Source: Dehalococcoidia bacterium (lineage in GTDB: Bacteria > Chloroflexota > Dehalococcoidia > Lucifugimonadales > SHYT01). From it: DNA of 64,000 bases. This document shows, piece after piece, positions 7,517-59,043 of this stretch. The DNA is taken from the NCBI GenBank assembly GCA_009693045.1, contig SHXZ01000003.1, forward strand, positions 53,092 to 117,091, read 5' to 3'. Both the position numbers and the translations under genes were made by a program. Positions within the stretch are counted from its first letter, which is position 1. The number at the start of each line of letters is the position of its first letter. The notes under the pieces are model-generated. The model made no database searches. It had not been told where the DNA came from and worked only from the letters and a program-made list of their open reading frames with translations.

Positions 7517-7564
7517 AGCCTCCCCACACCGCGAACGGATCAACGTGCCCGCCGTCGGCCCAAA

Positions 7565-7900
7565 CATCCCAGACACGTAGGGGCGCACGCCCGCCCCGAG
7601 CGTAGCCGAGGGGGCCGTCCGCCGCCCTCTCACTAAGAATGCCCCTACCATTCCGCCCGCCTGTCATTCCGAGCGGAGCGAGGAATCTCCCCCACGCCAC
7701 GCGCTGCCCATCGTCGCCACCGTAGGCCCGCACCTCCCAAACGCGTAAGGCCGCACAGCCGTGCGCCACTTGCCATTCCATCCGCCCCTTGTCATTCCGA
7801 GCGGAGCGAGGAATCTCCCCCACGCCGCGCGCTGCCCATCGTCGCCACCGTAGGCCCGCACCTCCCAAACGCGTAGGGGCGCACAGCCGTGCGCCCCTAC
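7565..7900. repeat. tandem composite repeat: two full units of about 125 bp plus a partial leading unit
   Basis: Unit 1 (7648..7772) and unit 2 (7773..7900) are near-identical (ccattcc..gtcattccgagcggagcgaggaatctcccccacgcc.cgcgctgcccatcgtcgccaccgtaggcccgcacctcccaaacgcgta.gg.cgcacagccgtgcgcc). A partial related unit lies at about 7565..7647. Unit 2 ends in the hairpin GTAGGGGCGCAcagccGTGCGCCCCTAC (7873..7900). Confidence 0.85.
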
Positions 7901-7946: not shown

Positions 7947-7984
7947 CCCTCCCTCCCCATTCAGGGGAGGGATTGAGGGAGAGG
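7947..7984. repeat. CCCTCCC..GGGAGGG hairpin repeat with GATTGAGGGAGAGG tail (family C)
   Basis: ccctccctccccattcaggggagggattgagggagagg. Related copies are listed below. Confidence 0.7.
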
Positions 7985-8343
7985 TCGCTGCAATCCGCCC
8001 CTTCCGCGGCACACTTGCTCTGGAGTACCCTGACCCCATGACCACCGCAAGCTTCCGCACCCGAGCCTGCGTCCTCCGGACGCACGCTCGCCTCGCGCCG
8101 TCTCGTCTCAGGGTCCGGACGCCCCAGACACCAGGCAAAACAATGATCATTCTTGGAGACCAACAGTCGGTGCACCAAGCCCTTCACGGCGGGACAAACT
8201 GGCCTGGAACTGGCGCAAAAACAACGTCAGCCAAAGCTGGCCAGCCAGCAGAAAACAATGCGATCAATGATCGCCTCAGTCTTGGTGCTTATCCCAGCGC
8301 TGAATAAAGATGGCCCAATCCAGAAGGCTTCCGGCGATGTCGT

Positions 8344-13555: not shown

Positions 13556-13629
13556 TGGCTGGCCCGCCTGGATTCGAACCAGGGTCAGGGGATCCAAAGT
13601 CCCCTGTGCTACCGCTGCACCACGGGCCA
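13556..13629 (-). tRNA. tRNA-Gln (anticodon UUG), CCA encoded
   Basis: The manual fold of the reverse complement is TGGCCCG TG GTGC AGCGGTA GCAC A GGGGA CTTTGGA TCCCC TGAC CCTGG TTCGAAT CCAGG CGGGCCA G CCA. All stems are Watson-Crick. Confidence 0.9.
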
Positions 13630-13669
13630 ACGAAGGTGAACCGTTGGCGAAAAGACCAGCATCAACCGC

Positions 13670-14782
13670 TTATGGGGGGTCGGAGGGCTTGTGCGGAAGC
13701 GACGCCACGCTGCGCCGGACTATGTCCAGGGCTTCGTTGGCAACGGGGTCAACCCCGTAAAGCAAAGCCAGGTAATACGAAACCCAACTACCAAGGTACA
13801 CCATGCCAAGCTGGTGGGCCAGCGGCCCGAGCCCGCGGGCTCCCACTAGCTCGCCGTCGGCCTCCACCTTCTCGCCTGCGACCCCCGCCGACCGAAGCAG
13901 CTCTTCCGTAACAGGCACCCGCTGGCTGAGGGCACTTGGTAAATGTGACGATAGGAGGATAAGGGCATACGCGTTCCGGCTGAGAGTGCTGGGATGGCAA
14001 TAGCCGCTGACCGCGTTGTGCTGGAGCTCGGGCCATGTAGCCGTCACGGCCCACGCTTTGGCGTTCTCGTTGATGTCGTACTGCCAGCGCCGCGCCGCGC
14101 TCGTCAGCAGACCCGCTCCGTAGACTACCGGCACGCGCCCCCACAAACGCCTCGCCAGGGCCTTGGCCGGGTTCTCGGCCTCCGGCGTCGCCAGTCCAAA
14201 GCGAAGGGATTGCTGGTCAATGAGGGAGGCCGCTTCGTCAATCTGTCCGTTCAGGTCTGGCGCATGGCCGGCGGCCTGCAGGACACCGAGGAGCGCGGCC
14301 AGAGCCCCGGCGAGCGAGTGCCTGCCGCCCCATCGGCTCGGGATAGCCACGGGAGCGACGACGCACGCCCCGGCGCGCCTGGCGAGTTCCCCGCCGTTCG
14401 TGATCGGCACCACGCCGGCGCCACACTCGGTCCCGCTCTGGTACGCGGAGAGGGTCTCCGCCGTGTTGCCTGAGTAGCTGCACGCCACAACCAGCGTCTT
14501 CTCGCCCGCCCAGGCGGGAAGGCCGTAGTCGCGCCAGACCGTGAGCGGGCAGGGCACGCCAAGATAGTGGAGCAGGTCGGACGCCATCTCGCCGGCGAGG
14601 CCCGAGGTTCCCATTCCGGCGACGACCACGGACGTCGTGTGACGATACCTGGATGGCAACGAGAGCGACCTCGTCGCCGCCACAGCTTCACGGCACTGGG
14701 CGGCCATCTGGGGGAGGTGGTCCCGCATCCGGGCGGGGTCAAACCGCTCGTAAAGGTCAGGGCAGTCAAGCGAAGGCACCAT
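13670..14782 (-). CDS. bifunctional phosphoglucose/phosphomannose isomerase (SIS domain)
   Basis: Track ORF of 370 aa with SIS-domain sequence (..VVVAGMGTSGLAGE.., ..ACSYSGNTAETL..) and the PGI/PMI-type C-terminal half. Confidence 0.8.
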   Translation of the reverse strand: MVPSLDCPDLYERFDPARMRDHLPQMAAQCREAVAATRSLSLPSRYRHTTSVVVAGMGTSGLAGEMASDLLHYLGVPCPLTVWRDYGLPAWAGEKTLVVACSYSGNTAETLSAYQSGTECGAGVVPITNGGELARRAGACVVAPVAIPSRWGGRHSLAGALAALLGVLQAAGHAPDLNGQIDEAASLIDQQSLRFGLATPEAENPAKALARRLWGRVPVVYGAGLLTSAARRWQYDINENAKAWAVTATWPELQHNAVSGYCHPSTLSRNAYALILLSSHLPSALSQRVPVTEELLRSAGVAGEKVEADGELVGARGLGPLAHQLGMVYLGSWVSYYLALLYGVDPVANEALDIVRRSVASLPHKPSDPP

Positions 14783-14909
14783 AACGCCCCAAGTGTAACA
14801 CGACGGGCGCGGTCGGGACGCTAAACATGAGTGATGAAGGCCGTAGGGCGCTGATCCAGCCCTTTGTGATCATACCGGACAAGTGAACTCATGGCCCTAC
14901 TGGGAGTAA

Positions 14910-14996
14910 TGGTGCCGAAGGAGGGAATCGAACCCACATAGGCTTGTGGCCCAACGGTTTTTGAGACCGTCGCGTCTACCGTTCCGCCACTTCGGC
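14910..14996 (-). tRNA. tRNA-Leu (anticodon CAA), long variable arm, CCA encoded
   Basis: In the reverse complement the acceptor stem is GCCGAAG/CTTCGGC, the anticodon stem ACGGT/ACCGT with loop CTCAAAA, and the T-loop TTCGATT. It has a long variable arm and ends A-CCA. The T stem has one T-T mismatch in my fold. Confidence 0.85.
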
Positions 14997-15026
14997 ACGC
15001 CGATGAAGCTTGCGCGGGAACAAAAA

Positions 15027-15101
15027 TGGAGCGGAAGATGGGGCTCGAACCCACGACCTCCTCCTTGGCAAGGAGGCGTTCTACCACTGAACTACTTCCG
15101 C
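15027..15101 (-). tRNA. tRNA-Gly (anticodon GCC), CCA encoded
   Basis: Reverse complement: GCGGAAG TA GTTC AGTGGTA GAAC G CCTCC TTGCCAA GGAGG AGGTC GTGGG TTCGAGC CCCAT CTTCCGC T CCA. Confidence 0.9.
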
Positions 15102-15514
15102 TCAGCAAAGCTGATTCTATGCGGCGGCGTTGCCGCCGTCAAGGGCGGCGAGGGCAAGGAGCGTCGTGTTCATGCGGCCGCACCGACACGAAGAGTGCCT
15201 GCTGGCCCTAACTGGCGCGCAGCAGGCACTCGACCGTATGTGGCCCTGAGACTCTTCCCCGCTTCGTCTCACCGTCCAGAGGTCTCTAAGGGCCACAGAG
15301 GCTTTCGTTGCTTGTATCGAAACGCAAATAAGACTAAGCTGCCTAGAGTAGGATGGTTGACTGGGTTCATGGGGAGTTCGAGTGTCCTCCTGTCTCCGAA
15401 AATGGTGTTGTTCTATACACACCAAACCGTCGAGCGCATCAATTGGACTAATTTCGATCCCAGCAACGTGTACCAAATAGCCGACCTAATGAGCGTGAAT
15501 CCGGATTTTCTCGA

Positions 15515-15802
15515 TTAGCACTTCGTCCTATCCTCAAACAAAGCCGTATTTTGATCCTGTGGTTTCACAGTTCGCGGCGTGGCGTCAGAAACTGTGTTGG
15601 ATGAAGACTGGCTGGGAGGGCTGAGGTAAGGCTTGCCGTATTGGGTGATGGGCGTTTTCGGTGCCGGAGGTTGCTGAAACTTTTCTGGCGACTGGCATCC
15701 CACAGACACGGCCACGGCTGCAATAATGGCGGCCATGAGCACGGCCATCAAGCTGAACCGCCGAATCCCTTTTAGCCACACGTTGGCACCTCTGCAGAGC
15801 AC
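15515..15802 (-). CDS. small putative lipoprotein (Pro/Ser-rich), in the lower-GC islet
   Basis: Track ORF of 95 aa with a signal/lipobox-like ..LMAVLMAAIIAAVAVSVGC. A GTG at 15781 would give a more typical signal-peptide length. I recognise no family. Confidence 0.4.
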   Translation of the reverse strand: MLCRGANVWLKGIRRFSLMAVLMAAIIAAVAVSVGCQSPEKFQQPPAPKTPITQYGKPYLSPPSQSSSNTVSDATPRTVKPQDQNTALFEDRTKC

Positions 15803-15917
15803 AGATGGGTGCTATGATACTCATTCTTCGGGTGCGGGCCACGGTCGGGGAGAATCGCCAAGCCTTAGTTGCTCGGTGCCCCTACCTCCCACCTTCCCGT
15901 CACGTCGCAAATCTTGA

Positions 15918-16064
15918 TTATGCCTTATGATCCCTGCCACGTAAGATGCCAATGACAACTAGGACGACACCGACAACGATCAAGGCAATTGGGCTATTGG
16001 TACCTCTTAGAACGCATTCGCCAGATATGCCGCCGATAATGAATAGAATGCCGAAGATGACCAA
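15918..16064 (-). CDS. candidate 48-aa two-TM membrane protein (below the track size cutoff)
   Basis: My translation from a TTG start is (M)VIFGILFIIGGISGECVLRGTNSPIALIVVGVVLVVIGILRGRDHKA*. A purine-rich GAAGGGG lies about 7 nt upstream, and an in-frame TGA immediately upstream fixes the start. It is in the same orientation as the lipoprotein ORF and just upstream of it. Confidence 0.35.
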   Translation of the reverse strand: MVIFGILFIIGGISGECVLRGTNSPIALIVVGVVLVVIGILRGRDHKA

Positions 16065-16596
16065 TCAACACCCCTTCACCTCTTGCAACTTCATCCCTCT
16101 GTGGACTTGACCATGTTTGCTTTGGCCGCTTCAAACACTGGCCCCAGAAAACCCTAGCACGTGAAAGTGCAGCACAGAGTATGTGATGGTCACATAATGT
16201 TGGCCGCTGTTACCAATGAGAATTGCCCACGACCTGAAGAACGTCGTAGGGCCACGTAAGGCCGATGAGGCGCTGCGCAAGCTGTTCAAGTTGCCGGTAC
16301 CCCGCCGACCTTCGGCTGAGCCTCCTCGTGGACCATCCTGGCTAATCGCTCCAAGGCCCTTTCGGCTCCTGCCTGTAGCCCGGCAGCGTGGCGTTCCCAT
16401 AGGGGAGCCAGGACTGCTTGGGCCGCCACCACATCGGGCGTTTCCGGCTGGGCCACGCCAACATCGCCGTAACGGCGAACACGTACAGCCACGTGCTACC
16501 AGAACTCCAACGAGAAGCAGTTGGCAAGGTAGGGGCCTTGCTCTTTGGAGCGCCAAACGCTTGAATGGGTCAATTGGTGTCAAATTGGTATCAAAT

Positions 16597-16624
16597 GGCC
16601 CCGGAGGGTATTTCTTCCGGGGCC
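16597..16624 (-). terminator. hairpin downstream of tRNA-Phe, a probable intrinsic terminator
   Basis: The minus strand reads GGCCCCGGA-agaaataccc-TCCGGGGCC followed by ATTTGATACCAATTTGA. It lies 20 nt past the tRNA 3' end. Confidence 0.5.
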
Positions 16625-16643
16625 ATTCCGTGGCTTCATTGCC

Positions 16644-16718
<75 letters not shown>

Positions 16719-19946: not shown

Positions 19947-20157
19947 TAATACCAGTTCTGCATGAGAGTGGCGCAAATCAACAATGCCATTCTGAGGGAG
20001 CGGAAGCGACCGAGGAATCTCTCCGCGTGTTGTTGGCCGCACAGGTAGCTGAAGAGATTCCTCGCGGAGTTTACCCTTGAGCGGAGCGAAGGGATCAGAA
20101 TGGTAGAAAAAATTCCTCTCTTGAATAGATGTCACCGTCACGCAGCGTTGGTATAGG
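19947..20157. repeat. MITE-like composite repeat of about 210 bp (family A)
   Basis: taataccagttctgcatgagagtggcgcaaatcaacaatgCCATTCTGAGGGAGCGGAAGCGACCGAGGAATCTC...GAGATTCCTCGCGGAGTTTACCCTTGAGCGGAGCGAAGGGATCAGAATGG...gttggtatagg. It contains internal inverted modules. It sits between the SBP and permease genes. Confidence 0.8.
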
Positions 20158-20279
20158 AACTGTCGTGTAGGAGCGATTCATGAGTCGCCCCTACAGAGCG
20201 CTTAGGAACCAGAGCTGCAATAGCGAGGCCAGGAGCGTAGTCAGACGCGCGGTGACCCTACTGCGAAGGAAAGAGAACG

Positions 20280-26967: not shown

Positions 26968-27519
26968 ATGCGTGTCCGGCTACTGTTTCTCCAGGATGTG
27001 CTCCCCCGCTACCGGGCGGGCGAGGTGCGCGAGGTTACGCGCGGCTACGCCCGCAACTACCTCATCCCGCACGGGTTCGCCGTTCCGGCCACCAAGGACC
27101 AGCTCAACCGAATTGAGAAGGTCAAGTCGGTCGCTGCGGAACACAGGAAGGTCGAGTCCGTACGCATGGGCGACCTCGCGGGGCTGCTCCAGGGCGCGTC
27201 CATCACCATCCGCATGCGCTCCGGCGAGGGCGGCAGGCTGTACGGCGCCGTCACCAACATGCTGCTGGCTGAGGAGTTGAAGAAGGCCGTCGGTATTGAC
27301 GTGGACCGCCGCCAGATTGACCTGCGGGAACCCATCCGCGCGATCGGGACGTTCCTGGTGCCGGTGCGTCTGGGCGAGAACCACACCCCAACTATCACCG
27401 TCACGGTGGAGTCCAGCACCCAGTTTGGCCAGGCAGCGACCCCGGTGGCTGCCGCGCCGACCGCAACCGCGGCTGCGGATCAGCCTCAGGACGCGGGTCC
27501 GACCGAGAACGCAACCTAA
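26968..27519 (+). CDS. rplI: 50S ribosomal protein L9
   Basis: MRVRLLFLQDVLPRYRAGEVREVTRGYARNYLIPHGFAVPATK.. is the canonical L9 N-terminus. It has an Ala/Pro-rich C-terminal extension. Confidence 0.9.
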   Translation: MRVRLLFLQDVLPRYRAGEVREVTRGYARNYLIPHGFAVPATKDQLNRIEKVKSVAAEHRKVESVRMGDLAGLLQGASITIRMRSGEGGRLYGAVTNMLLAEELKKAVGIDVDRRQIDLREPIRAIGTFLVPVRLGENHTPTITVTVESSTQFGQAATPVAAAPTATAAADQPQDAGPTENAT

Positions 27520-29045: not shown

Positions 29046-29176
29046 TCCCCAGTATCCACCGAGTGTTTTTGCCGCCAAAATTCCTGCACAATCTGCGGAT
29101 AGGTCCAGCGCATAGGCTCCATGGAAACGCCGTTTCGTTTCTTCATATTTTGAGGTTACCGCTAGCACTTGGCATT

Positions 29177-29212
29177 CCCTCTCCCCTTGTGGGAGAGGGT
29201 TAGGGTGAGGGG
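29177..29212. repeat. family C hairpin repeat
   Basis: ccctctccccttgtgggagagggttagggtgagggg, between dnaB and the loader gene. Confidence 0.75.
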
Positions 29213-29226
29213 TCTGACCAACTGTC

Positions 29227-30636
29227 ATGGAAAAGCTCGGCGACGTGCTCAACAAGCTCCGTTTGAAGGGTGCCGCGGCCCCAAACGGTACGCCGCTGCC
29301 TGATCTTCCCGCCGAACAGGCCCCCGCGCCCCCCTGCCCGCGCTGCCACGGCCTCGGCTGGGTGCGCCACCAGGTGCCCGTCACTCACCCCGACTTCGGC
29401 AAAGTCTTCCCCTGCGCCTGCCAGCTTGGGCAGATGCAGTCCACGCGCAACGCCGATCTGCTCCGCTACAGCGGCCTGCAACACATGGCCCGCTTCACGT
29501 TTGCGACATTGGCGCCAGAGGGCAAGGGGCAGTCGCTGGAGGAACGGCGGCAGTTCCAGAAGGCCCTCGCCGCTGCGCAGGCGTACGCCAAAGAGCCGAC
29601 GGGCTGGCTCGTGCTCACCGGCCCCAGCGGGTGCGGCAAGACCCACCTGGCGGCGGCCATCGCACACCGGCTTCTGGAGAACGGACGCCAGGCGTTCTTC
29701 GCCTCGGTGCCCGACCTGCTGGACCAGTTCCGCGCCAGCTTCTCGCCCTCCAGCGACGCCTCGGCGCCCTACAGCGACCTGTTCCAGCGCGTCGCCAACG
29801 CGCCGGTGCTGGCGCTGGACGACCTGGGCGCGCACAGCGGCACGCCCTGGGCGCAGGAGAAGCTGCTGCAGCTGCTCAACCAGCGGTACAACCTGCTGCT
29901 GCCCACGGTCATCACGCTCAGCGTGCCGCTCTCGCAGCTTGACGAGCGGCTGCGCTCGCGACTGGGCGACGCGACGGTGGCGAGGGTGGTGGAGGTCGCG
30001 ACGCGGCGAGACGAGGTGCGGGTGTGCATCGGGCGGAGCGAGGAGAGCCTGGCGGGGATGCGCTTCGCGACGTTTGAGACGAGGCGGCCCGGCGACGACG
30101 CCACGGACGAGAAGCGCCTTGGCCGCGCGCTGGCCCTCTGCGAGCAGTTCGCGGAGACGCCGCTGGGGTGGTTCCTGCTCATCGGCCCAACACTGCAGGG
30201 CAAGACGCATCTGCTGGCCTCGGTGTTCAACGAGCGCAAGGATTCCGACCAGCCGGTGGCCTACGCGTGGGTGCCGGCGCTGCTGGAGGAGCTGCGCAGC
30301 ACGTTCAGCCCCGGCAGCGAGGTGGCCTACAGCGAGCTGTTTGACCGCGTGAAGAACGCGCCGGTGCTGCTGCTGGACGACCTGGGCTCGGAGCACGCCA
30401 CGCTCTGGGCGCAAGAGAAGCTGTACCAGCTCCTGGTGCACCGCCACGACGCCTGGCTCCCGACCGTGGTCGCGACGCACCTCACAGAGCCGGAACTGCG
30501 GGACGGCCTGCCTGCGGCGCTGGTCTCGCGCCTGCTGAACGAGACGAAGGTGGAGATCCTTCCCATCGGCGTGTTTGAGGCGCGCGGCGTGCGGCGGGGC
30601 CCGCCGCGGCCGACGCAGCGCCGAGGACGAGGGTAG
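29227..30636 (+). CDS. DnaC/DnaI-like helicase loader with tandemly duplicated AAA+ module and N-terminal Cys cluster
   Basis: Track ORF of 469 aa. The N-terminus has CPRCHGLGW..FPCAC. Module 1 has GPSGCGKTHL and VLALDDLG. Module 2 has GPTLQGKTHL and VLLLDDLG. The two modules align (..FRASFSP..YSDLFQRVANAPVLALDDLGAHSGTPWAQEKLLQLLNQRY versus ..LRSTFSP..YSELFDRVKNAPVLLLDDLGSEHATLWAQEKLYQLLVHRH). Confidence 0.8.
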   Translation: MEKLGDVLNKLRLKGAAAPNGTPLPDLPAEQAPAPPCPRCHGLGWVRHQVPVTHPDFGKVFPCACQLGQMQSTRNADLLRYSGLQHMARFTFATLAPEGKGQSLEERRQFQKALAAAQAYAKEPTGWLVLTGPSGCGKTHLAAAIAHRLLENGRQAFFASVPDLLDQFRASFSPSSDASAPYSDLFQRVANAPVLALDDLGAHSGTPWAQEKLLQLLNQRYNLLLPTVITLSVPLSQLDERLRSRLGDATVARVVEVATRRDEVRVCIGRSEESLAGMRFATFETRRPGDDATDEKRLGRALALCEQFAETPLGWFLLIGPTLQGKTHLLASVFNERKDSDQPVAYAWVPALLEELRSTFSPGSEVAYSELFDRVKNAPVLLLDDLGSEHATLWAQEKLYQLLVHRHDAWLPTVVATHLTEPELRDGLPAALVSRLLNETKVEILPIGVFEARGVRRGPPRPTQRRGRG

Positions 30637-30646
30637 ACTAAAACCT

Positions 30647-31022
30647 CCCACATTCCCCCTCTCCATACGATGGAGAGGGGGAATGTGGGCTGATTGGAAG
30701 GCGCTCCGAGTTGATTCGGGGCGCTTTGAAATTTTTGGCGTGCTCGGTGCTGGCGTAGCGGCGGTATGGATGGCGAATGCGTCGATTTTTTCGGTGGGCT
30801 TTTCGTTTGCTGAATTTGAAGGAACGAATCCGAGGACGAACATCACCCCGCTACCCTCTCCCTGTGGGAGAGGGTAGCGGGGTTTAGGCGGGTGGACTGG
30901 ATGGCGATGGTGGTGGTCATAGGCGTAGGATAGGACTGGTGTTCTACTTTGCGCAAGGGACGGATGGCAGTGACCTCTCCCCCCTTCCCTCCCCGGCGCG
31001 GGGAGGGAAGGGGTTGCGGGGG
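30647..31022. repeat. cluster of three long family C hairpins with AT-richer spacers
   Basis: 30647..30689 is CCCACATTCCCCCTCTCCAT-acg-ATGGAGAGGGGGAATGTGGG (20-bp stem). 30846..30882 is CCCCGCTACCCTCTCCC-tgt-GGGAGAGGGTAGCGGGG. 30981..31013 is CCCCTTCCCTCCCCG-gcg-CGGGGAGGGAAGGGG. Confidence 0.85.
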
Positions 31023-37002: not shown

Positions 37003-37086
37003 ACGTTCCTGCCTCCGGACCGGCCTGGCTGGCCGGGCCTTACGAAATCTGTACGAGCAAGCGTAGCGCAGGCCATGATGACATGC

Positions 37087-37130
37087 AACGGTACGTAGGG
37101 GCGAGGCATGCCTCGCCCCTACGTACCGTT
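37087..37130. repeat. 44-nt perfect palindrome, family B
   Basis: AACGGTACGTAGGGGCGAGGCA|TGCCTCGCCCCTACGTACCGTT. Confidence 0.9.
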
Positions 37131-37163
37131 GCCACCAGGTAGGCAAACGGCGGCGCGGGCGGC

Positions 37164-39921: not shown

Positions 39922-40008
39922 TACCACTCTACTTGCAGGCTGCATTCGTTGAGTCTCCAGTTCAGCCAACTAAGGGTCTCTCCGAACACGCTCTCGAACG
40001 TCGAAGAC

Positions 40009-40203
40009 TAATACCAGTCCTGTAAGAAAGTGGCTCCGGCGCAACCATGCCATTCTGAGGGAGCGAAGCGACCGAGGAATCTCACCACGTTGCGCTGCCC
40101 GCCCAGATACCTTCGGAGATTCCTCACTGTGGCCAGAATGGCGCGAACAACGGTATTCTCTCTACTTTGAAGTCTCCAACTGCATAACTCCGATTGGTAC
40201 AAG
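40009..40203. repeat. MITE-like composite repeat (family A), full-length copy
   Basis: taataccagtcctgtaagaaagtggctccggcgcaaccatgCCATTCTGAGGGAGCGAAGCGACCGAGGAATCTC...GAGATTCCTCactgtggCCAGAATGG...gattggtacaagg. It is collinear with 19947..20157. Confidence 0.8.
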
Positions 40204-44135: not shown

Positions 44136-44307
44136 AGACGCCTCCTCAAGACTGCTACCTAGTAGAACGCACAAGCCCTGGCAATTGTTTGCTCTCAGCC
44201 CCCTAATTGCCGTGCGGCTGACTGAGAACGCCTAACGACACAACGGCGACGGCCTGGACCCACGCCTTCATGCCGTTCGCTTCAGGGATGCGCGCATCCT
44301 GTTTTGC

Positions 44308-44411
44308 AATGCCAGTGCTACAAGAAAGTGGCGCCGACGCAACCATGCCATTCTGAGGGAGCCCATTCGCTTCGCTCAGGGTAAACTCCGCGACCGAGGA
44401 ATCTCCCCACG
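44308..44411. repeat. family A repeat, truncated or variant copy
   Basis: aatgccagtgctacaagaaagtggcgccgacgcaaccatgCCATTCTGAGGGAGCccattcgcttcgctcagggtaaactccgcgaCCGAGGAATCTCcccacg. Confidence 0.75.
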
Positions 44412-44527
44412 TATCGTCCCCGCCCGCGTATCCGCGAACGGCTCCAGCCGCCGCTAGTCGTACCACGACGGTGCTGTCGCCCGACTCCGTGGTGGTGCGT
44501 GATCGTCCCACCCTGCCCTACCTCCAA

Positions 44528-46912: not shown

Positions 46913-47156
46913 GGCACACCCAAGCTTAGCACTGGTCGGAGCCCCAGCGTATGTCCAGGAACATTCACTCCAGGATCTTTCAATTCTGCCATGCTGAACG
47001 GAGCGAAGCATCTCTCCTGGCTCCAAAGCCTCCACCTGACGCGCGATGATTCCAGATGTCCGCTGTTTCGTCGGCCCCAGGATGCCTTAGTTGCTGAGAA
47101 CTGCAAGGCCCTGACACTCTCCCTGAGGCCTGGCCTTTTTGAGGTTCGCCGGCTTC

Positions 47157-47342
47157 TTATACCAGCTCTGTTAGAAAGTGGTGCGAACCCAACCATGCCA
47201 TTCTGAGGGAGCGGAGCGACCGAGGCCTGCCCTCGACCCTGAGCGCACCGAAGGGGAAGGGAATCTCTTCACAGTACGTTACCCCCCCTGATACCTGCGG
47301 AGATTCTTCGCGGAGTTTACCTTGAGAGTCGGTGAACCAATG
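47157..47342. repeat. family A composite repeat with an internal insertion, as in the copy at 2225..2375
   Basis: ttataccagctctgttagaaagtggtgcgaacccaaccatgCCATTCTGAGGGAGCGGAGCGACCGAGG-cctgccctcgaccctgagcgcaccgaaggggaaggg-AATCTC...GAGATTCTTCGCGGAGTTTACCTTGAG.. Confidence 0.8.
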
Positions 47343-47370
47343 CCGACGTCCGCGTCGCCGCTCAGATAAT

Positions 47371-47409
47371 GGGATCCCTCCCCGACGCGGAGAGGGATTG
47401 AGGGAGAAG
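47371..47409. repeat. family C hairpin repeat
   Basis: gggatccctccccgacgcggagagggattgagggagaag. Confidence 0.65.
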
Positions 47410-47646
47410 TGGAGGGTGTAGCCGACGGGGAAAGGTCAGCCCATCGTCCTAGCCCCTTGCCCCTCCTCGAAAAGTCCAGTCTCTGGAATCTGCGCAATCT
47501 ACGGATTGTCTCTCCACCCTGCCATCCGCCTCTTACCCAAAGCACCTCGTCAAGCGTAACCTTGAGTCATGGCCCTTCAAAGTGCGCCCTCCCACTGCTT
47601 GCGGAAGCCACCAGCCCACGAGTCGCTGGCGCGCCTCAGGGCCTTG

Positions 47647-48683: not shown

Positions 48684-49946
48684 CTAGGCCTTGGCTAGCT
48701 CCTGCTTGTGCTTGGCCCAGACGTCGGGCCCAATGCCGGTGCCGTCGTTGGACTCAAACGGTCCAACCAAGCCCATCTCCTTGCTCATCTCGCGGAGGGC
48801 GGGCAGGACCTCGGAGCCCATCAGCCGGAAGCTGCGCATCTGGTCGTCGTGGGTCATGGCACCGTCGCCATCCCAAATGTAGAGCGTGCCCGGGCGCAGA
48901 AGCCCCAACACATGGCGGAGCTTGGCCAGGACCGTCTTCGGCGTGCCGGAGACGATGCTGTACTGCTCAACCTGGGTCTCGTAGGGGGCGCGGAAGGTGG
49001 AGGCGGTGCTGGCCGCGCCGCCGGTGCGGGCGCCAAGCAGCGCCGCCTGGCGCTTGCGCGAGTCAGCAGACGAAAGCCCCGGCAGACCGGTGAACAGCGG
49101 CGCCGCAGCGGTGTTCCCCGCGATGAACGGGTTCTCCGCGCCGCTAATGTAGCGACGGCCTACCTGGTCGGCCAACTCCTCGGTCTCATCCGCGTGGACC
49201 TTGAACAGGTAACCAAGGTTCTGCGAGCCGGCCTTGTAGCCGAACTCCTGCGCGCACTCAAAGTAGTAGTCAAACATCTCTTTGGTAGGCCCCAGCAAGG
49301 TCGCAAGCATCACGTACGGATAGTGGTGCTGCGCCGCCCAGCGCACAGTCTCCTTGCTGGCGACGCCGGGGATCATCGCAGGCGGGTGCGGCCTCTGGAA
49401 CGGCATGGACCAGGGATTCACGTACCGGTACTGGTAGTGCTTCCCTTCCCACCGGAAGGGGCCCGGCGTGGTCCACGTCTTGACGATGAAGTCGTGGGCC
49501 TCCTCGTACCGCTCGCGGTTGTACGCGGACGGCGCGTTGTGCGCCACGCTCTCCGACGGCGCCCCGCGCACCCAGCCGCTCACCAGCCGCCCGTGAGAGA
49601 TCATGTCAATCATGGCAAGCTGCTCGGCCAGCCACAGCGGGTCGTCCCAAATCGGCAGTACGTTCCCCAGGATGCACAGCTTGGCCCGCTTGGTCTGGCG
49701 GGCCAGGATGGCGACGCCGACGTTCGTCACCCCCTGCATGCAGAACGCCGTGCTGTGGTGCTCGTTGAACATCAGCCCGTCAAACCCGATCTCCTCGGCG
49801 TACAGCTTTTCGTCCAGGTATCGGTTATAGAGCTGGCGTCCAACCTCCGGGTCGTAGAGCTTGTTGCTAACATCCAGGCGAATGGTTCCCAGGTATCCCT
49901 GCGTGGCGTCCTGCCAGGGCTGCTCGGTGAAGTGCCCGATGAACAT
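48684..49946 (-). CDS. LLM-class flavin-dependent oxidoreductase (about 420 aa, paralog 1)
   Basis: Track ORF of 420 aa (MFIGHFTEQPWQD...NEHHS...LAEQLAMIDMISHGRLVSGWVRG...). Confidence 0.85.
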   Translation of the reverse strand: MFIGHFTEQPWQDATQGYLGTIRLDVSNKLYDPEVGRQLYNRYLDEKLYAEEIGFDGLMFNEHHSTAFCMQGVTNVGVAILARQTKRAKLCILGNVLPIWDDPLWLAEQLAMIDMISHGRLVSGWVRGAPSESVAHNAPSAYNRERYEEAHDFIVKTWTTPGPFRWEGKHYQYRYVNPWSMPFQRPHPPAMIPGVASKETVRWAAQHHYPYVMLATLLGPTKEMFDYYFECAQEFGYKAGSQNLGYLFKVHADETEELADQVGRRYISGAENPFIAGNTAAAPLFTGLPGLSSADSRKRQAALLGARTGGAASTASTFRAPYETQVEQYSIVSGTPKTVLAKLRHVLGLLRPGTLYIWDGDGAMTHDDQMRSFRLMGSEVLPALREMSKEMGLVGPFESNDGTGIGPDVWAKHKQELAKA

Positions 49947-50157: not shown

Positions 50158-51423
50158 CTATCCTCTCAAGGGAGCGACCGACTTCATCTTGGCCCAGGCC
50201 TCCTGGTCAAAGCCCGTGCCGTCGTTCACCTCGTACGGGCTGAGCAAACCAAGCTCCTTCCCCATCTCCTTGGCGGCGGGGATCACTTCCTCCCCCATGA
50301 GGCGCAGGCTCCGCACCTGGTCATCGTGGGACATGGCGCCATCCCCGTCCCAGAAGAAGATGGTCCCCGGCCGGAGGTACTCCAGGATGTGACGGACCTT
50401 GGGAATGACGGTCTTTGGCGTTCCAGAGATGATGGTGTAGTCGCTAAGCTGATCGTCGTAGGTGCGGAAGCGCGCCCCCTGGCGCCCTCTGGGGCCGAAG
50501 GCCGCCGCGCCCAGCTGCGCGGCGCTGCGAGGTCTCATTCCGGGGAGCACGGTGAGCCAGGGCTTCACGGTGCCCTCGTTGCCGGCCAAAAATGGGTTAC
50601 TAATGCCTTCAATGTACTTGCGCCCGACCTCGTGCGCCTGCTCTTCGGTCTCCTCCACGTGCACCTTGAATAGGTAGCCCAGGTTCTGGGTGCCGGACGT
50701 GTACCCCTGTTCGGCGGCGGAGCGGTGGTACAGTTCAAACGCCTCTTTGGTGGCGTCCAGCTTGGTTGCGAGCTGCACGATGGGGAAATGATTCTGAGCG
50801 CACCACAGCACCGTGTCCACGCTCACCGTGCTGGGGATCCAGATGGGCGGATGGGGTTTCTGGAACGGCATGGACCAGGGGTTCACGTACCGGTACTGGT
50901 AATGCTTCCCTTCCCAGCGGAAGGGCCCCGGAGTCGTCCACGTCTTGATGATGAACTCGTGGGACTCCTGGTGGCGTTCCCGGTTGTAGGCTGGGACGGC
51001 GTTGTGGGTGATGCTCTCCCGGCCACCGCCGCGCACCCAGCCAGAGACCAGCCGCCCGTGGGATATCATGTCAATCATGGCAAGCTGCTCGGCCAGCCAC
51101 AACGGGTCGTCCCAGAGCGGGATGAGGTTGCCCAGGATGGTGATCTTGGCCTTGGTGGTCTGCCTGGCGAGGATGCAGGCCTCCACGTTCGTGACCCCCT
51201 GCATGCACCCCGGCAACGAGTGATGCTCGTTGAGCATCAACGCCTCAAACCCAACCTCCTCGGCGAACAGCTTCTCGTCGATGTACCGGTTGTAGAGCCT
51301 GCCGCCAATGGCGGGGTCATAAGCCTCGTTGCTGATGGCCAGGTCCGTGATGCCGGTGCCGCCCTTGCTGAAGTCAAGCCTGGGGTCCTGCCAGGGCTGT
51401 TCATTGAAGTGACCGATAAGCAT
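50158..51423 (-). CDS. LLM-class flavin-dependent oxidoreductase (about 421 aa, paralog 2)
   Basis: Track ORF 50158..51501. I place the start at Met 51423 (SD AGGAGGA; MLIGHFNEQPWQD..). It is collinear with the 48684..49946 product and shares long identical blocks (PLWDDPLWLAEQLAMIDMISHGRLVSGWVRG, KTWTTPGPFRWEGKHYQYRYVNPWSMPFQ). Confidence 0.85.
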   Translation of the reverse strand: MLIGHFNEQPWQDPRLDFSKGGTGITDLAISNEAYDPAIGGRLYNRYIDEKLFAEEVGFEALMLNEHHSLPGCMQGVTNVEACILARQTTKAKITILGNLIPLWDDPLWLAEQLAMIDMISHGRLVSGWVRGGGRESITHNAVPAYNRERHQESHEFIIKTWTTPGPFRWEGKHYQYRYVNPWSMPFQKPHPPIWIPSTVSVDTVLWCAQNHFPIVQLATKLDATKEAFELYHRSAAEQGYTSGTQNLGYLFKVHVEETEEQAHEVGRKYIEGISNPFLAGNEGTVKPWLTVLPGMRPRSAAQLGAAAFGPRGRQGARFRTYDDQLSDYTIISGTPKTVIPKVRHILEYLRPGTIFFWDGDGAMSHDDQVRSLRLMGEEVIPAAKEMGKELGLLSPYEVNDGTGFDQEAWAKMKSVAPLRG

Positions 51424-51661
51424 CCCGTCCTCCTGCTGACGACGCGCTAAACGAGCCATCGCTTCCCCATCGTGGCGCGTTGCTGCCCAAGTATATCGCA
51501 ACGTTTGGCTGTGTCAATCTCGGATGCTCGGTGCGTACAAGACGGGAACGGCCATTACCGCAACACTGTGCCAAAATGCAACGATATCCGTCACATGCTA
51601 AACAGCAGCCAGGGTTATGGCTGGAAGACCAGACTACCTCTCGCGCCATCGAGATGGGTTC

Positions 51662-53713: not shown

Positions 53714-53752
53714 TGTATGCCACTATGCCACATGGAACGAAGCGGGGACGAG

Positions 53753-53779
53753 CAGGGGCGATGCATGCCTCGCCCCTGG
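53753..53779. repeat. family B-like palindrome variant
   Basis: CAGGGGCGAtgcatgccTCGCCCCTG in the divergent folP/carboxyltransferase intergenic region. Confidence 0.6.
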
Positions 53780-53892
53780 CAAGAGAGCAACCGCGCCTTG
53801 CAGCCATCGCGTTGCTTGTGTTAGCATTTGGCCGTCTATCGCGCGCCGAACTTGTGGCAGCACTCGTATTTCACTGGACAGGACGTAACACC

Positions 53893-58955: not shown

Positions 58956-58981
58956 CGTCGGAGCGAGCCAGTCGTACGTCT

Positions 58982-59009
58982 GTAGGGGCGACTGGCCAGT
59001 CGCCCCTAC
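58982..59009. repeat. family B palindrome
   Basis: GTAGGGGCGACtggccaGTCGCCCCTAC between icd and mdh. Confidence 0.85.
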
Positions 59010-59043
59010 GTTGCGCAACCCAAACGCGAGAAAGGAACGAGAA

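Follow-up and report, generated by a model that had tools for sequence, protein, structure and literature searches.

A candidate replicative helicase loader with tandem DnaC/DnaI-type AAA+ modules in Chloroflexota

DnaC, DnaI, lambda P and DciA, the few models of replicative helicase loading, are single-module loaders that assemble around DnaB. On DnaB, six protomers of Escherichia coli DnaC assemble into a spiral that binds ATP at the interfaces between protomers and single-stranded DNA (ssDNA) through a tetrad of residues, K143, F146, S177 and Y179 (PMC8213410); a 7.5 Å crystal structure shows Bacillus subtilis DnaI bound to the helicase in the form of three dimers (PMC3791466), and its helicase-interaction domain, DnaI-N, binds the helicase and coordinates zinc through C67, C70, H84 and C101 (Loscha et al., PMC2673437). 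In the study by Brezellec et al. 2016, each of the Chloroflexi genomes covered, among them those of Dehalococcoides, Anaerolinea, Chloroflexus, Roseiflexus, Sphaerobacter and Thermomicrobium, had a single resident (“domesticated”) dna[CI] gene and lacked dciA. Here we analyze a gene in a 64,000-nucleotide stretch of the genome of a Dehalococcoidia bacterium (assembly GCA_009693045.1, contig SHXZ01000003.1, positions 53,092 to 117,091; hereafter, the window, with all coordinates counted from its first letter). This gene probably encodes a resident replicative helicase loader of the DnaI/DnaC clade in which the AAA+ module was duplicated long ago, and which would act by a mechanism that we infer from its described relatives; for brevity, the product is called the loader below, and the copy in the window is the query.

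Among the solved structures, DnaI (4M4W, 2K7R; AAA+ domain 2W58, 5HE8) is the best match to the loader by sequence profile. The two share the initiator-type two-helix insertion, the DD Walker B, the ‘LPT..T’ and box VII motifs, and a putative N-terminal metal site with the same ligand order and CxxC-x13-H spacing; furthermore, in most relatives, the loader gene is accompanied by one for a DnaD/DnaB_2-domain protein, a putative partner as in Firmicutes with DnaI. In contrast to DnaI, which has one AAA+ module, the loader has two per chain, its N-terminal domain lacks the first ~60 residues of DnaI-N and carries an extra invariant cysteine (C65), and its gene adjoins the helicase gene itself. 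The DnaC proteins of E. coli (6QEL/6QEM) and Aquifex aeolicus (3EC2/3ECC) belong to the same AAA+ clade and share with the loader the Walker A lysine, Walker B, the E-R-x3-R arrangement of the arginine coupler and finger, and equivalents of the ssDNA tetrad. However, DnaC is a single-module protein, with a short helical N-terminal helicase-binding domain that lacks zinc, and the Walker B of the loader is DD rather than DE. The top curated models are those of the clostridial-type ‘DnaC’, PRK08116 and PRK06835, with profiles of 269-330 positions that encompass a single AAA+ module and an N-terminal region; the PRK06835 match begins at residue 37 and spans the Cys cluster, and the score of PRK08116 comes from two stretches. 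To our knowledge, these two families are themselves uncharacterized. IstB, the IS21 helper (5BQ5, 8Q3W), shares its Pfam family (PF01695) and AAA+ core with the loader, but the loader has no IstA partner, is resident and has a different N-terminal domain, and IstB scores below DnaI and DnaC. Several AAA+ modules per polypeptide are also found in p97, NSF, ClpB, dynein and midasin, and nucleotide sites that tend to diverge in function are a further similarity to the loader family; these proteins, however, represent other AAA+ clades, without the initiator-type insertion or any link to helicase loading. We know of no tandem member of the DnaA/DnaC/IstB/ORC clade.

In its working, the loader would be most similar to DnaI, although it stays below the curated cut-offs for DnaI and DnaC and departs from their one-module architecture. 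An initial annotation of this DNA, made from the sequence alone, knew of no described tandem DnaC-type AAA+ loader. This agrees with the literature open to full-text search, outside of which most subscription journals lie, where we found neither a tandem DnaC/DnaI loader nor a Chloroflexota DnaD-like partner; Brezellec et al. 2016 do not mention a tandem architecture in their text or in the supplementary files searched.

Domain architecture and conserved motifs

The product of the gene is identical to GenBank MSQ13090.1, labelled ‘AAA family ATPase [Dehalococcoidia bacterium]’ and encoded on a 194-kb contig, and three further database entries are near-identical 469-amino acid (aa) proteins from the same 90% cluster. 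The start codon is well placed because the N-terminus, MEKLGDVLNKL, fits the consensus MExLGDxLxR of more than 100 homologs. A BLASTP self-comparison aligned aa 91-275 with aa 276-469 at 41% identity over 164 aa (E 2e-39), as expected from the initial annotation, which had proposed two mutually aligning DnaC/IstB-type modules; all the motifs it quoted (CPRCHGLGW…FPCAC, GPSGCGKT, GPTLQGKT, VLALDDLG and VLLLDDLG) are present as well. The repeat is also detectable in the DNA by a repeat finder, with 29763-29916 being 72% identical to 30321-30474 at a spacing of 558 nucleotides (nt).

The loader belongs to the DnaC/DnaI/IstB superfamily of AAA+ proteins (PF01695, initiator/loader clade). Pfam IstB_IS21, the family that includes DnaC and DnaI, matched in two stretches with 76.6 bits (cut-off 24.1), and the best NCBIfam loader models are of the DnaC/DnaI type, each below its cut-off: PRK08116 with 182 bits (cut-off 189) and PRK06835 with 120 bits. 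The NCBIfam models for DnaI (PRK08939, 113.9 bits, cut-off 228), DnaC (PRK07952, 70.8 bits, cut-off 357) and the IS21 helper (IS21_help_AAA, NF038214, 102.7 bits, cut-off 200) did not reach their cut-offs either. A profile of the family, built from an alignment of 110 members that also underlies the conservation counts below, was run against the sequences in the PDB. The top match was B. subtilis DnaI (4m4w, E 7e-23), followed by E. coli DnaC (6qel), both on module 1; module 2 matched Aquifex DnaC (3ec2) and the DnaI chains 2w58, 2qgz and 5he8 (profile positions 277-441), and IstB ranked below the DnaI and DnaC chains. In the AlphaFold model of the loader, which was constructed with the same alignment (predicted local distance difference test score, pLDDT, 85.7; predicted template modelling score, pTM, 0.64), both halves display the layout characteristic of the initiator/loader clade, b1-a1-b2-(two-helix insertion)-b3-a3-b4-a4-b5, with the insertion located between b2 and the Walker B strand (helices 161-172 and 182-190 in module 1; 349-358 and 368-376 in module 2). 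The target-normalized template modelling (TM) scores obtained with Foldseek were 0.72-0.80 for the AAA+ domains of DnaI and DnaC (0.80 for 3EC2) compared to 0.53-0.66 for IstB; whole-chain alignments to p97 and DnaA had root-mean-square deviations (rmsd) above 13 Å and are uninformative on module packing. The PDB profile matches, the modelled topology and the TM scores thus bear out the earlier assignment of both halves to DnaC/DnaI-type AAA+ folds.

The N-terminal Cys/His cluster is nearly invariant in the family, with C37 present in 109, C40 in 110, H54 in 102, C63 in 110 and the extra C65 in 110 of the 110 sequences. An HMMER alignment to 4m4w_J superimposes C37, C40, H54-P55 and C63 on C67, C70, H84-P85 and C101 of DnaI, and the CxxC-x13-H spacing is the same in the loader family and DnaI. 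The initial annotation had called the cluster reminiscent of the zinc site of DnaI; with the four zinc ligands aligned residue for residue, homology is supported at the sequence level. Because the ligands align, we take the cluster to be a homologous metal site, predicted to bind zinc, and because part of DnaI-N is missing and neither a Pfam nor a fold match was obtained (see below), we consider the module that contains it to be a reduced DnaI-N-like one. Judging from the model, the linker within aa 1-35 is probably disordered.

Both AAA+ modules retain the Walker A and Walker B motifs and the arginine finger position, with the conservation given in Table 1. In DnaC, R216 is the arginine coupler, R220 the arginine finger and R237 the sensor II arginine (PMC8213410). 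The box VII pattern of the loader, E-R-x3-R, fits the ERVMDR stretch of DnaC (R216, R220); this match rests on the motif, the HMMER alignment being 4 residues off at that edge. By HMMER alignment to DnaC, the equivalents of the ssDNA-binding tetrad are R169/F172/T206/W208 in module 1 and R357/F360/T392/W394 in module 2. The residue type at these positions (F/Y, T/S) is maintained in 109-110 of the 110 sequences, and both arginines and both tryptophans are invariant. Sensor II has no counterpart in module 1: the ‘APDYR’ motif is kept solely in module 2, and we liken R453 of the loader to R237 in the string ...DSYR, which we take to be the sensor II sequence of DnaC. The asparagine that serves as sensor I in the family (60 of 110 at position 232) is replaced by serine in the query. 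Thus conserved, both modules look able to bind nucleotide, to provide an arginine finger and to contact ssDNA. By these motifs, the nucleotide sites of modules 1 and 2 are not identical, and the two ATP sites are probably non-equivalent because the sensor II arginine is found only in that of module 2.

Among 91 diverse two-module representatives that were surveyed for the Walker motifs, 68 have Walker A and both Walker B acids intact in both modules; the second Walker B acid was lost from module 2 in 13, from module 1 in 8 and from both modules in 2. Given that this acid is lost in either module, specialization of one site appears to recur in either direction. In the same set, we also looked for correlated loss of Walker B and of the arginine fingers acting in trans, which might have told which finger acts on which site, and discarded the idea: with rare exceptions both fingers are retained, and shared ancestry probably links the few cases of loss.

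Distribution, age and genomic linkage of the family

A scan of species-representative genomes (one genome per species) identified relatives of the loader at no fewer than 511 confirmed sites; the locus counts given below come from the best 80. All of the best 80 loci cover both modules, and 79 are labelled Chloroflexota, the remaining one being a metagenome-assembled genome (MAG) labelled Proteobacteria. Represented among these loci are Dehalococcoidia, Dehalococcoidales, SAR202, Anaerolineae and MAGs labelled Chloroflexia. A word-indexed search returned 7991 relatives, of which the best 120, almost without exception proteins of 420-490 aa, cover the query in full at 40-50% identity, and when 1.84 billion cluster representatives were searched exhaustively with HMMER, 561 reached E ≤ 1e-30. 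The fused architecture to which the initial annotation had drawn attention is therefore no rarity of one genome; it is the usual form in most of the Chloroflexota classes sampled.

When the 110 proteins of the alignment were split into modules, the nearest neighbor of each module 1 was the module 1 of another protein (110 of 110), and that of module 2 was another module 2 in 109 of 110; the identity between the two modules was 0.51 within one protein and 0.50 across proteins. Because the modules pair by position, and identity within a protein is no higher, a single old duplication without concerted evolution is indicated. With this position-specific kinship, the kept Walker and finger residues and the ssDNA tetrad equivalents, both modules appear to be under selection. 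A neighbor-joining tree of 259 modules with DnaC and DnaI outgroups has internal branches close to zero and a DnaI outgroup nested inside, so that its root is not resolved and only the coarse pattern can be read: first and internal modules cluster with most of the single modules, and the last modules (of two-, three- and four-module proteins) fall outside this group, mostly among each other.

The number of modules varies across the family. A four-module ortholog, P0144 (827 aa; locus L084, 7001-9484), consists of the zinc module and four diverged AAA+ modules with 41-65% mutual identity as protein and at most 70% at the DNA level, and these values indicate that the gene is real. In this protein, modules 1-3 are each followed by a sensor II-like LPDYR or LPNFR, and the fourth ends in APDYQ, without the arginine. 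A single-module ortholog from a Chloroflexota MAG, P0275 (276 aa), has one module followed by APDYR. A large single-module group comes from Ktedonobacteria, including the cultured Dictyobacter and Reticulibacter, and combines a low-complexity extension, the zinc module and one AAA+ module; the extension, N-terminal of the zinc module, is 190-380 residues long (P0256, P0263, P0278, P0290 and relatives) and probably disordered. The one-, two- and four-module types share the operon dnaB, DnaB_2-domain gene, loader, as seen for one module in L085 and L086 and for four in L084. We also observed inteins (Pfam Intein_splicing, LAGLIDADG_3) in the dnaB genes of L084 (4433-6259), next to the four-module loader, and L085 (3318-6173), next to a Ktedonobacteria-type single-module loader; the dnaB of the window contains none. 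Among database proteins with three or ‘extra’ modules, P0145, in which two modules share 85% identity, and P0146, which has frameshift-like repeats, are possible artefacts and were not used as evidence.

The initial annotation had placed the open reading frame (ORF) of the loader directly behind rplI and dnaB, which holds: the three genes lie on the same strand, and the two upstream assignments are supported by Pfam and by NCBIfam TIGR00665. This linkage is conserved: of the 76 related loci with sufficient upstream sequence, 75 have dnaB 5' of the loader and in the same orientation, and L9 lies upstream of dnaB in 49 of 80; downstream of the query loader lies a HIT-family gene, and synteny with the relatives is preserved on this side as well. 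In 74 of 80 loci, the gene directly 5' of the loader is DnaD-like, and in most cases it separates the loader from dnaB. The gap, typically of ~650 bp, is filled by a gene of ~235 aa, with stop and start codons overlapping those of its neighbors (L004 5385-6083 and L015 5370-6083 were used for comparison), the product of which matches Pfam DnaB_2 (PF07261), the C-terminal domain of DnaD and B. subtilis DnaB. This DnaD-like protein is likely to be a co-loader in most relatives. In the window, its place is taken by the dnaB-loader spacer of only 181 bp. Neither a DnaD-like ORF (tblastn and a profile of the DnaD-like proteins of the relatives) nor a second DnaC-like gene (tblastn and the family profiles) was detected in the 64-kb window. 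The closest relatives of the query also lack the DnaD-like gene at this place, with a gap of 275 bp in L081 and an unrelated gene of 352 aa without a Pfam match in L083. A connection between the loss of the dnaD-like gene and the divergence of module 2 described below was ruled out, given that six other loci without dnaD have a canonical module 2.

GC-rich palindromic elements of the form ‘CCCTCTCC…GGAGAGGG’, resembling repetitive extragenic palindromes (REP-like; repeat family D12), fill the spacers that flank the loader gene upstream and downstream and recur throughout the window, producing spurious ORFs that translate as ‘…PLPQGERE…’. They may be traces of a rearrangement by which the dnaD-like gene was lost.

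A possible loading mechanism and its alternatives

The identity of the protein as a helicase loader, a function predicted from sequence, is very likely because the Pfam match, the ranking of the NCBIfam models, the PDB profile matches, the Foldseek scores and the DnaI zinc ligands all agree; the DnaB encoded in the window is the presumed client. Under the mechanism we propose, the N-terminal zinc module would, like DnaI-N, attach to the C-terminal (RecA-like) tier of DnaB, and modules 1 and 2 would be neighbors in an open spiral like that of DnaC, each in the place of one protomer. Six AAA+ modules would thus come from three chains and be brought to each DnaB hexamer, with only three helicase anchors, where the six modules are otherwise supplied by six DnaC or DnaI monomers. 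The ‘trimer of dimers’ formed by DnaI on the helicase would become covalent, and each chain would have one intramolecular and one intermolecular ATP interface. The initial annotation, too, had suggested that a covalent pseudo-dimer would alter the loader:helicase stoichiometry and let the two ATP sites specialize. We give this side-by-side 3:6 geometry close to an even chance of being correct. The occurrence of one-, two- and four-module orthologs in one and the same operon fits modules that are interchangeable units of a filament. Tentatively, Chloroflexota might load the helicase with covalent protomer concatemers, usually of two and elsewhere of one or four modules, that form a trimer spiral on three zinc anchors, with different jobs for the intra- and intermolecular ATP interfaces.

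Several observations weigh against this reading. Every NCBIfam loader model scores under its cut-off; Pfam DnaI_N has no match in the loader, approximately the first 60 residues of DnaI-N are absent from the family, and a model of the isolated N-terminal domain (aa 1-100, pLDDT 76) produced no significant fold match in the PDB. The window lacks the DnaD-like ORF that accompanies most relatives. The pTM of the single-chain AlphaFold model is 0.64, and the 3:6 ratio, the placement of the modules side by side and the site of docking are all inferred. The four-module ortholog is not evenly divisible into a hexamer. Finally, judging from its substitutions, module 2 may no longer be a normal ATPase in the query lineage.

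This last point can be extended to an alternative for the query lineage, namely, that module 1 is the only working ATPase and that module 2 is a degenerating pseudo-ATPase with a structural or regulatory role, for example, supplying an arginine finger and DNA contacts. In a comparison that set the query, together with the three sequences nearest to it in the alignment, against all other family members, the query deviated at 11 of 53 near-invariant positions in module 2 versus 4 of 55 in module 1. The changes in module 2 include G323L in the P-loop, which is limited to the query's own clade (the query and L081-L083), T416A, D438N and, at the coupler position, R431A, and the APDYR motif has become VFEAR; the recurrent site loss in the family, through the missing second Walker B acid counted above for either module, points in the same direction. 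Against degeneration, the query retains K326, T327, D384, D385, R435 and R453, the pattern GxxxxGK[ST] remains a valid Walker A, and position 4 of the P-loop is not glycine in RecA or DnaB either. We consider this alternative rather unlikely in its full form; module 2 may be drifting toward a regulatory role in the query lineage and is not obviously dead. In the protein found in L081 and L082 (P0005, 68% identical to the query), the Walker B of module 1 is LDGLG, with the second acid gone, and the P-loop of module 2 is the clade-specific GPTLSGKT, so that both sites are atypical in one protein.

A different arrangement, with six chains per DnaB hexamer attached through six zinc domains and modules 1 and 2 forming stacked spirals or rings, like D1 and D2 of p97, NSF and ClpB, such that one tier would serve DNA or DnaB and the other would be regulatory, appears unlikely to a greater degree. 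Tandem AAA+ proteins of the classical clade do stack their modules, this arrangement would retain the canonical 6:6 stoichiometry of anchors, and the restriction of sensor II to module 2, along with the loss of the second Walker B acid from one module in about a quarter of the diverse representatives, could reflect such a division. Foldseek, too, loosely aligns the whole model with p97 chains, but with TM scores of 0.2-0.3 and rmsd above 15 Å, that is, the modelled arrangement of the modules is unlike that in p97. Moreover, ssDNA tetrad equivalents and arginine fingers are kept in both modules; AAA+ proteins of the initiator clade build open helical filaments rather than stacked closed rings; DnaI has already been seen as three dimers on the helicase; and orthologs with one, two and four modules suit a filament of variable length better than one, two and four tiers. 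It is highly improbable that the gene is not a chromosomal loader at all but rather an IstB-like helper of an IS21-type element or a DnaC-like gene of a phage or plasmid. Although IstB_IS21 is the best Pfam match, IS21_help_AAA scores 103 bits and GC-rich repeats flank the gene, that score is far below the cut-off of 200, DnaI and DnaC outscore IstB in both the sequence and the fold searches, and the phage records contain only single-module relatives, from Firmicutes phages, with ~30% identity. Neither IstA nor any other transposase is present among the neighbors of the loader, which is flanked by dnaB and the HIT-family gene, both housekeeping genes, and the place behind dnaB is conserved across the sampled classes; the IstB-type transposition helper that the initial annotation had named as the contrary case is at odds with this neighborhood. 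The least credible explanation is an artefact, either a duplication in the assembly or two genes fused by a sequencing error. Some database relatives (P0145 and P0146) are indeed suspect; nevertheless, the reading frame of the query is continuous, its modules are 41% identical as protein, with the detected DNA repeat at 72% at most, the same 469-aa form is found in four database entries from different sources, and the two-module layout is shared by the best 80 of the at least 511 sites. The mis-assembly that the initial annotation had considered is thus incompatible with old, diverged modules that appear in hundreds of independent assemblies.

Other elements of the window, and implications

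The coordinates of the loader, its parts and the surrounding elements are collected in Table 1. Other neighbors of the loader are recA, a Trm112-like gene, a methyltransferase gene and a calcineurin-like (Metallophos) phosphoesterase gene, the product of which looks, by eye, similar to Mre11/SbcD. Dispersed intergenic repeats of 26-130 nt form several families (D3, D4, D6-D10, D18, D19; for example, ‘…CCATTCTGAGGGAGCGRAGCGACCGAGGAATCTC…’) that look like MITE-type (miniature inverted-repeat transposable element) or REP-type elements. A perfect 48-nt palindrome (GCAACGGTACGTAGGGGCGAGGCA / TGCCTCGCCCCTACGTACCGTTGC) is located at 37085-37132, just downstream of a glycyl-tRNA synthetase-like coding region, and three related ‘GTAGGGGCGA…TCGCCCCTAC’ hairpins were detected at 20166-20201, 53751-53786 and 58981-59016 (D11, I3, I8, I12); the palindrome and the hairpins may be terminators or a repeat family. 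Two adjacent paralogous genes for luciferase-like monooxygenases (Pfam Bac_luciferase; 48684-49946 and 50158-51501, both on the minus strand) account for a direct repeat of ~600 nt with 75-78% identity and a spacing of 1465 nt (D1, D2). Four tRNA genes (Gln-TTG, Leu-CAA, Gly-GCC and Phe-GAA) occupy 13556-16718 on the minus strand, and no Rfam family besides tRNA reached its gathering score in the window.

Table 1 Features of the loader locus and of repeat elements in the window.
Feature	Positions	Strand	Remarks
Loader gene, tandem-AAA+	29227..30636	+	ATG start, 469 aa, stop codon 30634-30636
aa 1-35, short conserved helix (aa 4-13) then linker	29227..29331	+	pLDDT <50 for aa 13-28
Cys/His cluster, aa 37-65, C37-x2-C40-x13-H54-P55-x7-C63-x-C65	29335..29421	+	putative DnaI-N-type zinc module
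AAA+ module 1, aa 88-262 (‘ARFTF’ lead-in, helix a0, core with two-helix insertion)	29488..30012	+	best IstB_IS21 stretch aa 127-253; 4m4w, 6qel; model
Module 1 Walker A, GPSGCGKT	29620..29643	+	K138 109/110, T139 108/110
Module 1 Walker B, VLALDDLG	29806..29829	+	D198 110/110, D199 105/110
Module 1 box VII, DERLRSRL	29941..29964	+	R241 (Arg-coupler position) 97/110; R245 (Arg-finger position) 107/110
Inter-module linker, aa 257-277	29995..30057	+	variable; consensus without conserved residue or sensor II arginine
AAA+ module 2, aa 278-453 (‘MRFATF’ lead-in, helix a0, core, sensor II tail)	30058..30585	+	self-alignment, PDB profile matches, model
Module 2 Walker A, GPTLQGKT	30184..30207	+	K326 110/110; G323L where Gly in 104/110
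Module 2 Walker B, VLLLDDLG	30364..30387	+	D384 109/110, D385 107/110
Module 2 box VII, AALVSRL	30517..30534	+	A431 at coupler position (Arg in 76/110); R435 at finger position 110/110
Module 2 sensor II position, VFEAR (R453)	30571..30585	+	R453 106/110; family consensus APDYR
C-terminal tail, aa 454-469, basic (GVRRGPPRPTQRRGRG)	30586..30633	+	pLDDT <50 for aa 452-460; poorly conserved
rplI (ribosomal protein L9)	26968..27519	+	Pfam Ribosomal_L9_N and _C; opens the conserved rplI-dnaB-loader string
dnaB, replicative DNA helicase, 463 aa	27654..29045	+	TIGR00665 474 bits (cut-off 385); Pfam DnaB, DnaB_C
dnaB-loader spacer, 181 bp	29046..29226	.	GC-rich REP-like hairpin at 29176-29211 (repeat family D12)
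Hairpins right behind the loader stop codon	30647..30727	.	20-bp-stem palindrome 30647-30689; terminator-like stem and T-run 30698-30727 (+); consensus matches only
REP-like elements, D12	29176-29211, 30647-30689, 30853-30875, 30975-31020; 2423-2458, 7950-7985, 47375-47410		
Dispersed intergenic repeats	2183-2375, 19979-20125, 40008-40125, 44306-44417, 47156-47348, 7522-7898		

The probable resident loader of the DnaI/DnaC clade with an old duplication of its AAA+ module is widespread, conserved and, as far as we found, undescribed; its family members are presently labelled ‘AAA family ATPase’, ‘ATP-binding protein’ or ‘DnaC’. A dnaB-dnaD-like-dnaI-like operon is used by most of the sampled Chloroflexota lineages, among them Dehalococcoidia, SAR202, Anaerolineae and MAGs labelled Chloroflexia. 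Separating the roles of single ATP sites and protomer interfaces in a homo-oligomer is a long-standing difficulty. With a natural tethered dimer, along with the one- and four-module orthologs, the two sites would become genetically separable, and the same dimer would allow a direct test of whether the dimers of DnaI, of which three (‘three dimers’) are seen on the helicase, act as functional units. If the proposed mechanism is correct, these loaders would show a loader:helicase stoichiometry and a division of labor unseen in DnaC, DnaI, DciA or lambda P, would be the first tandem members of the DnaA/DnaC/ORC initiator clade, and would put a DnaD-plus-DnaI-type pathway at work outside Firmicutes.

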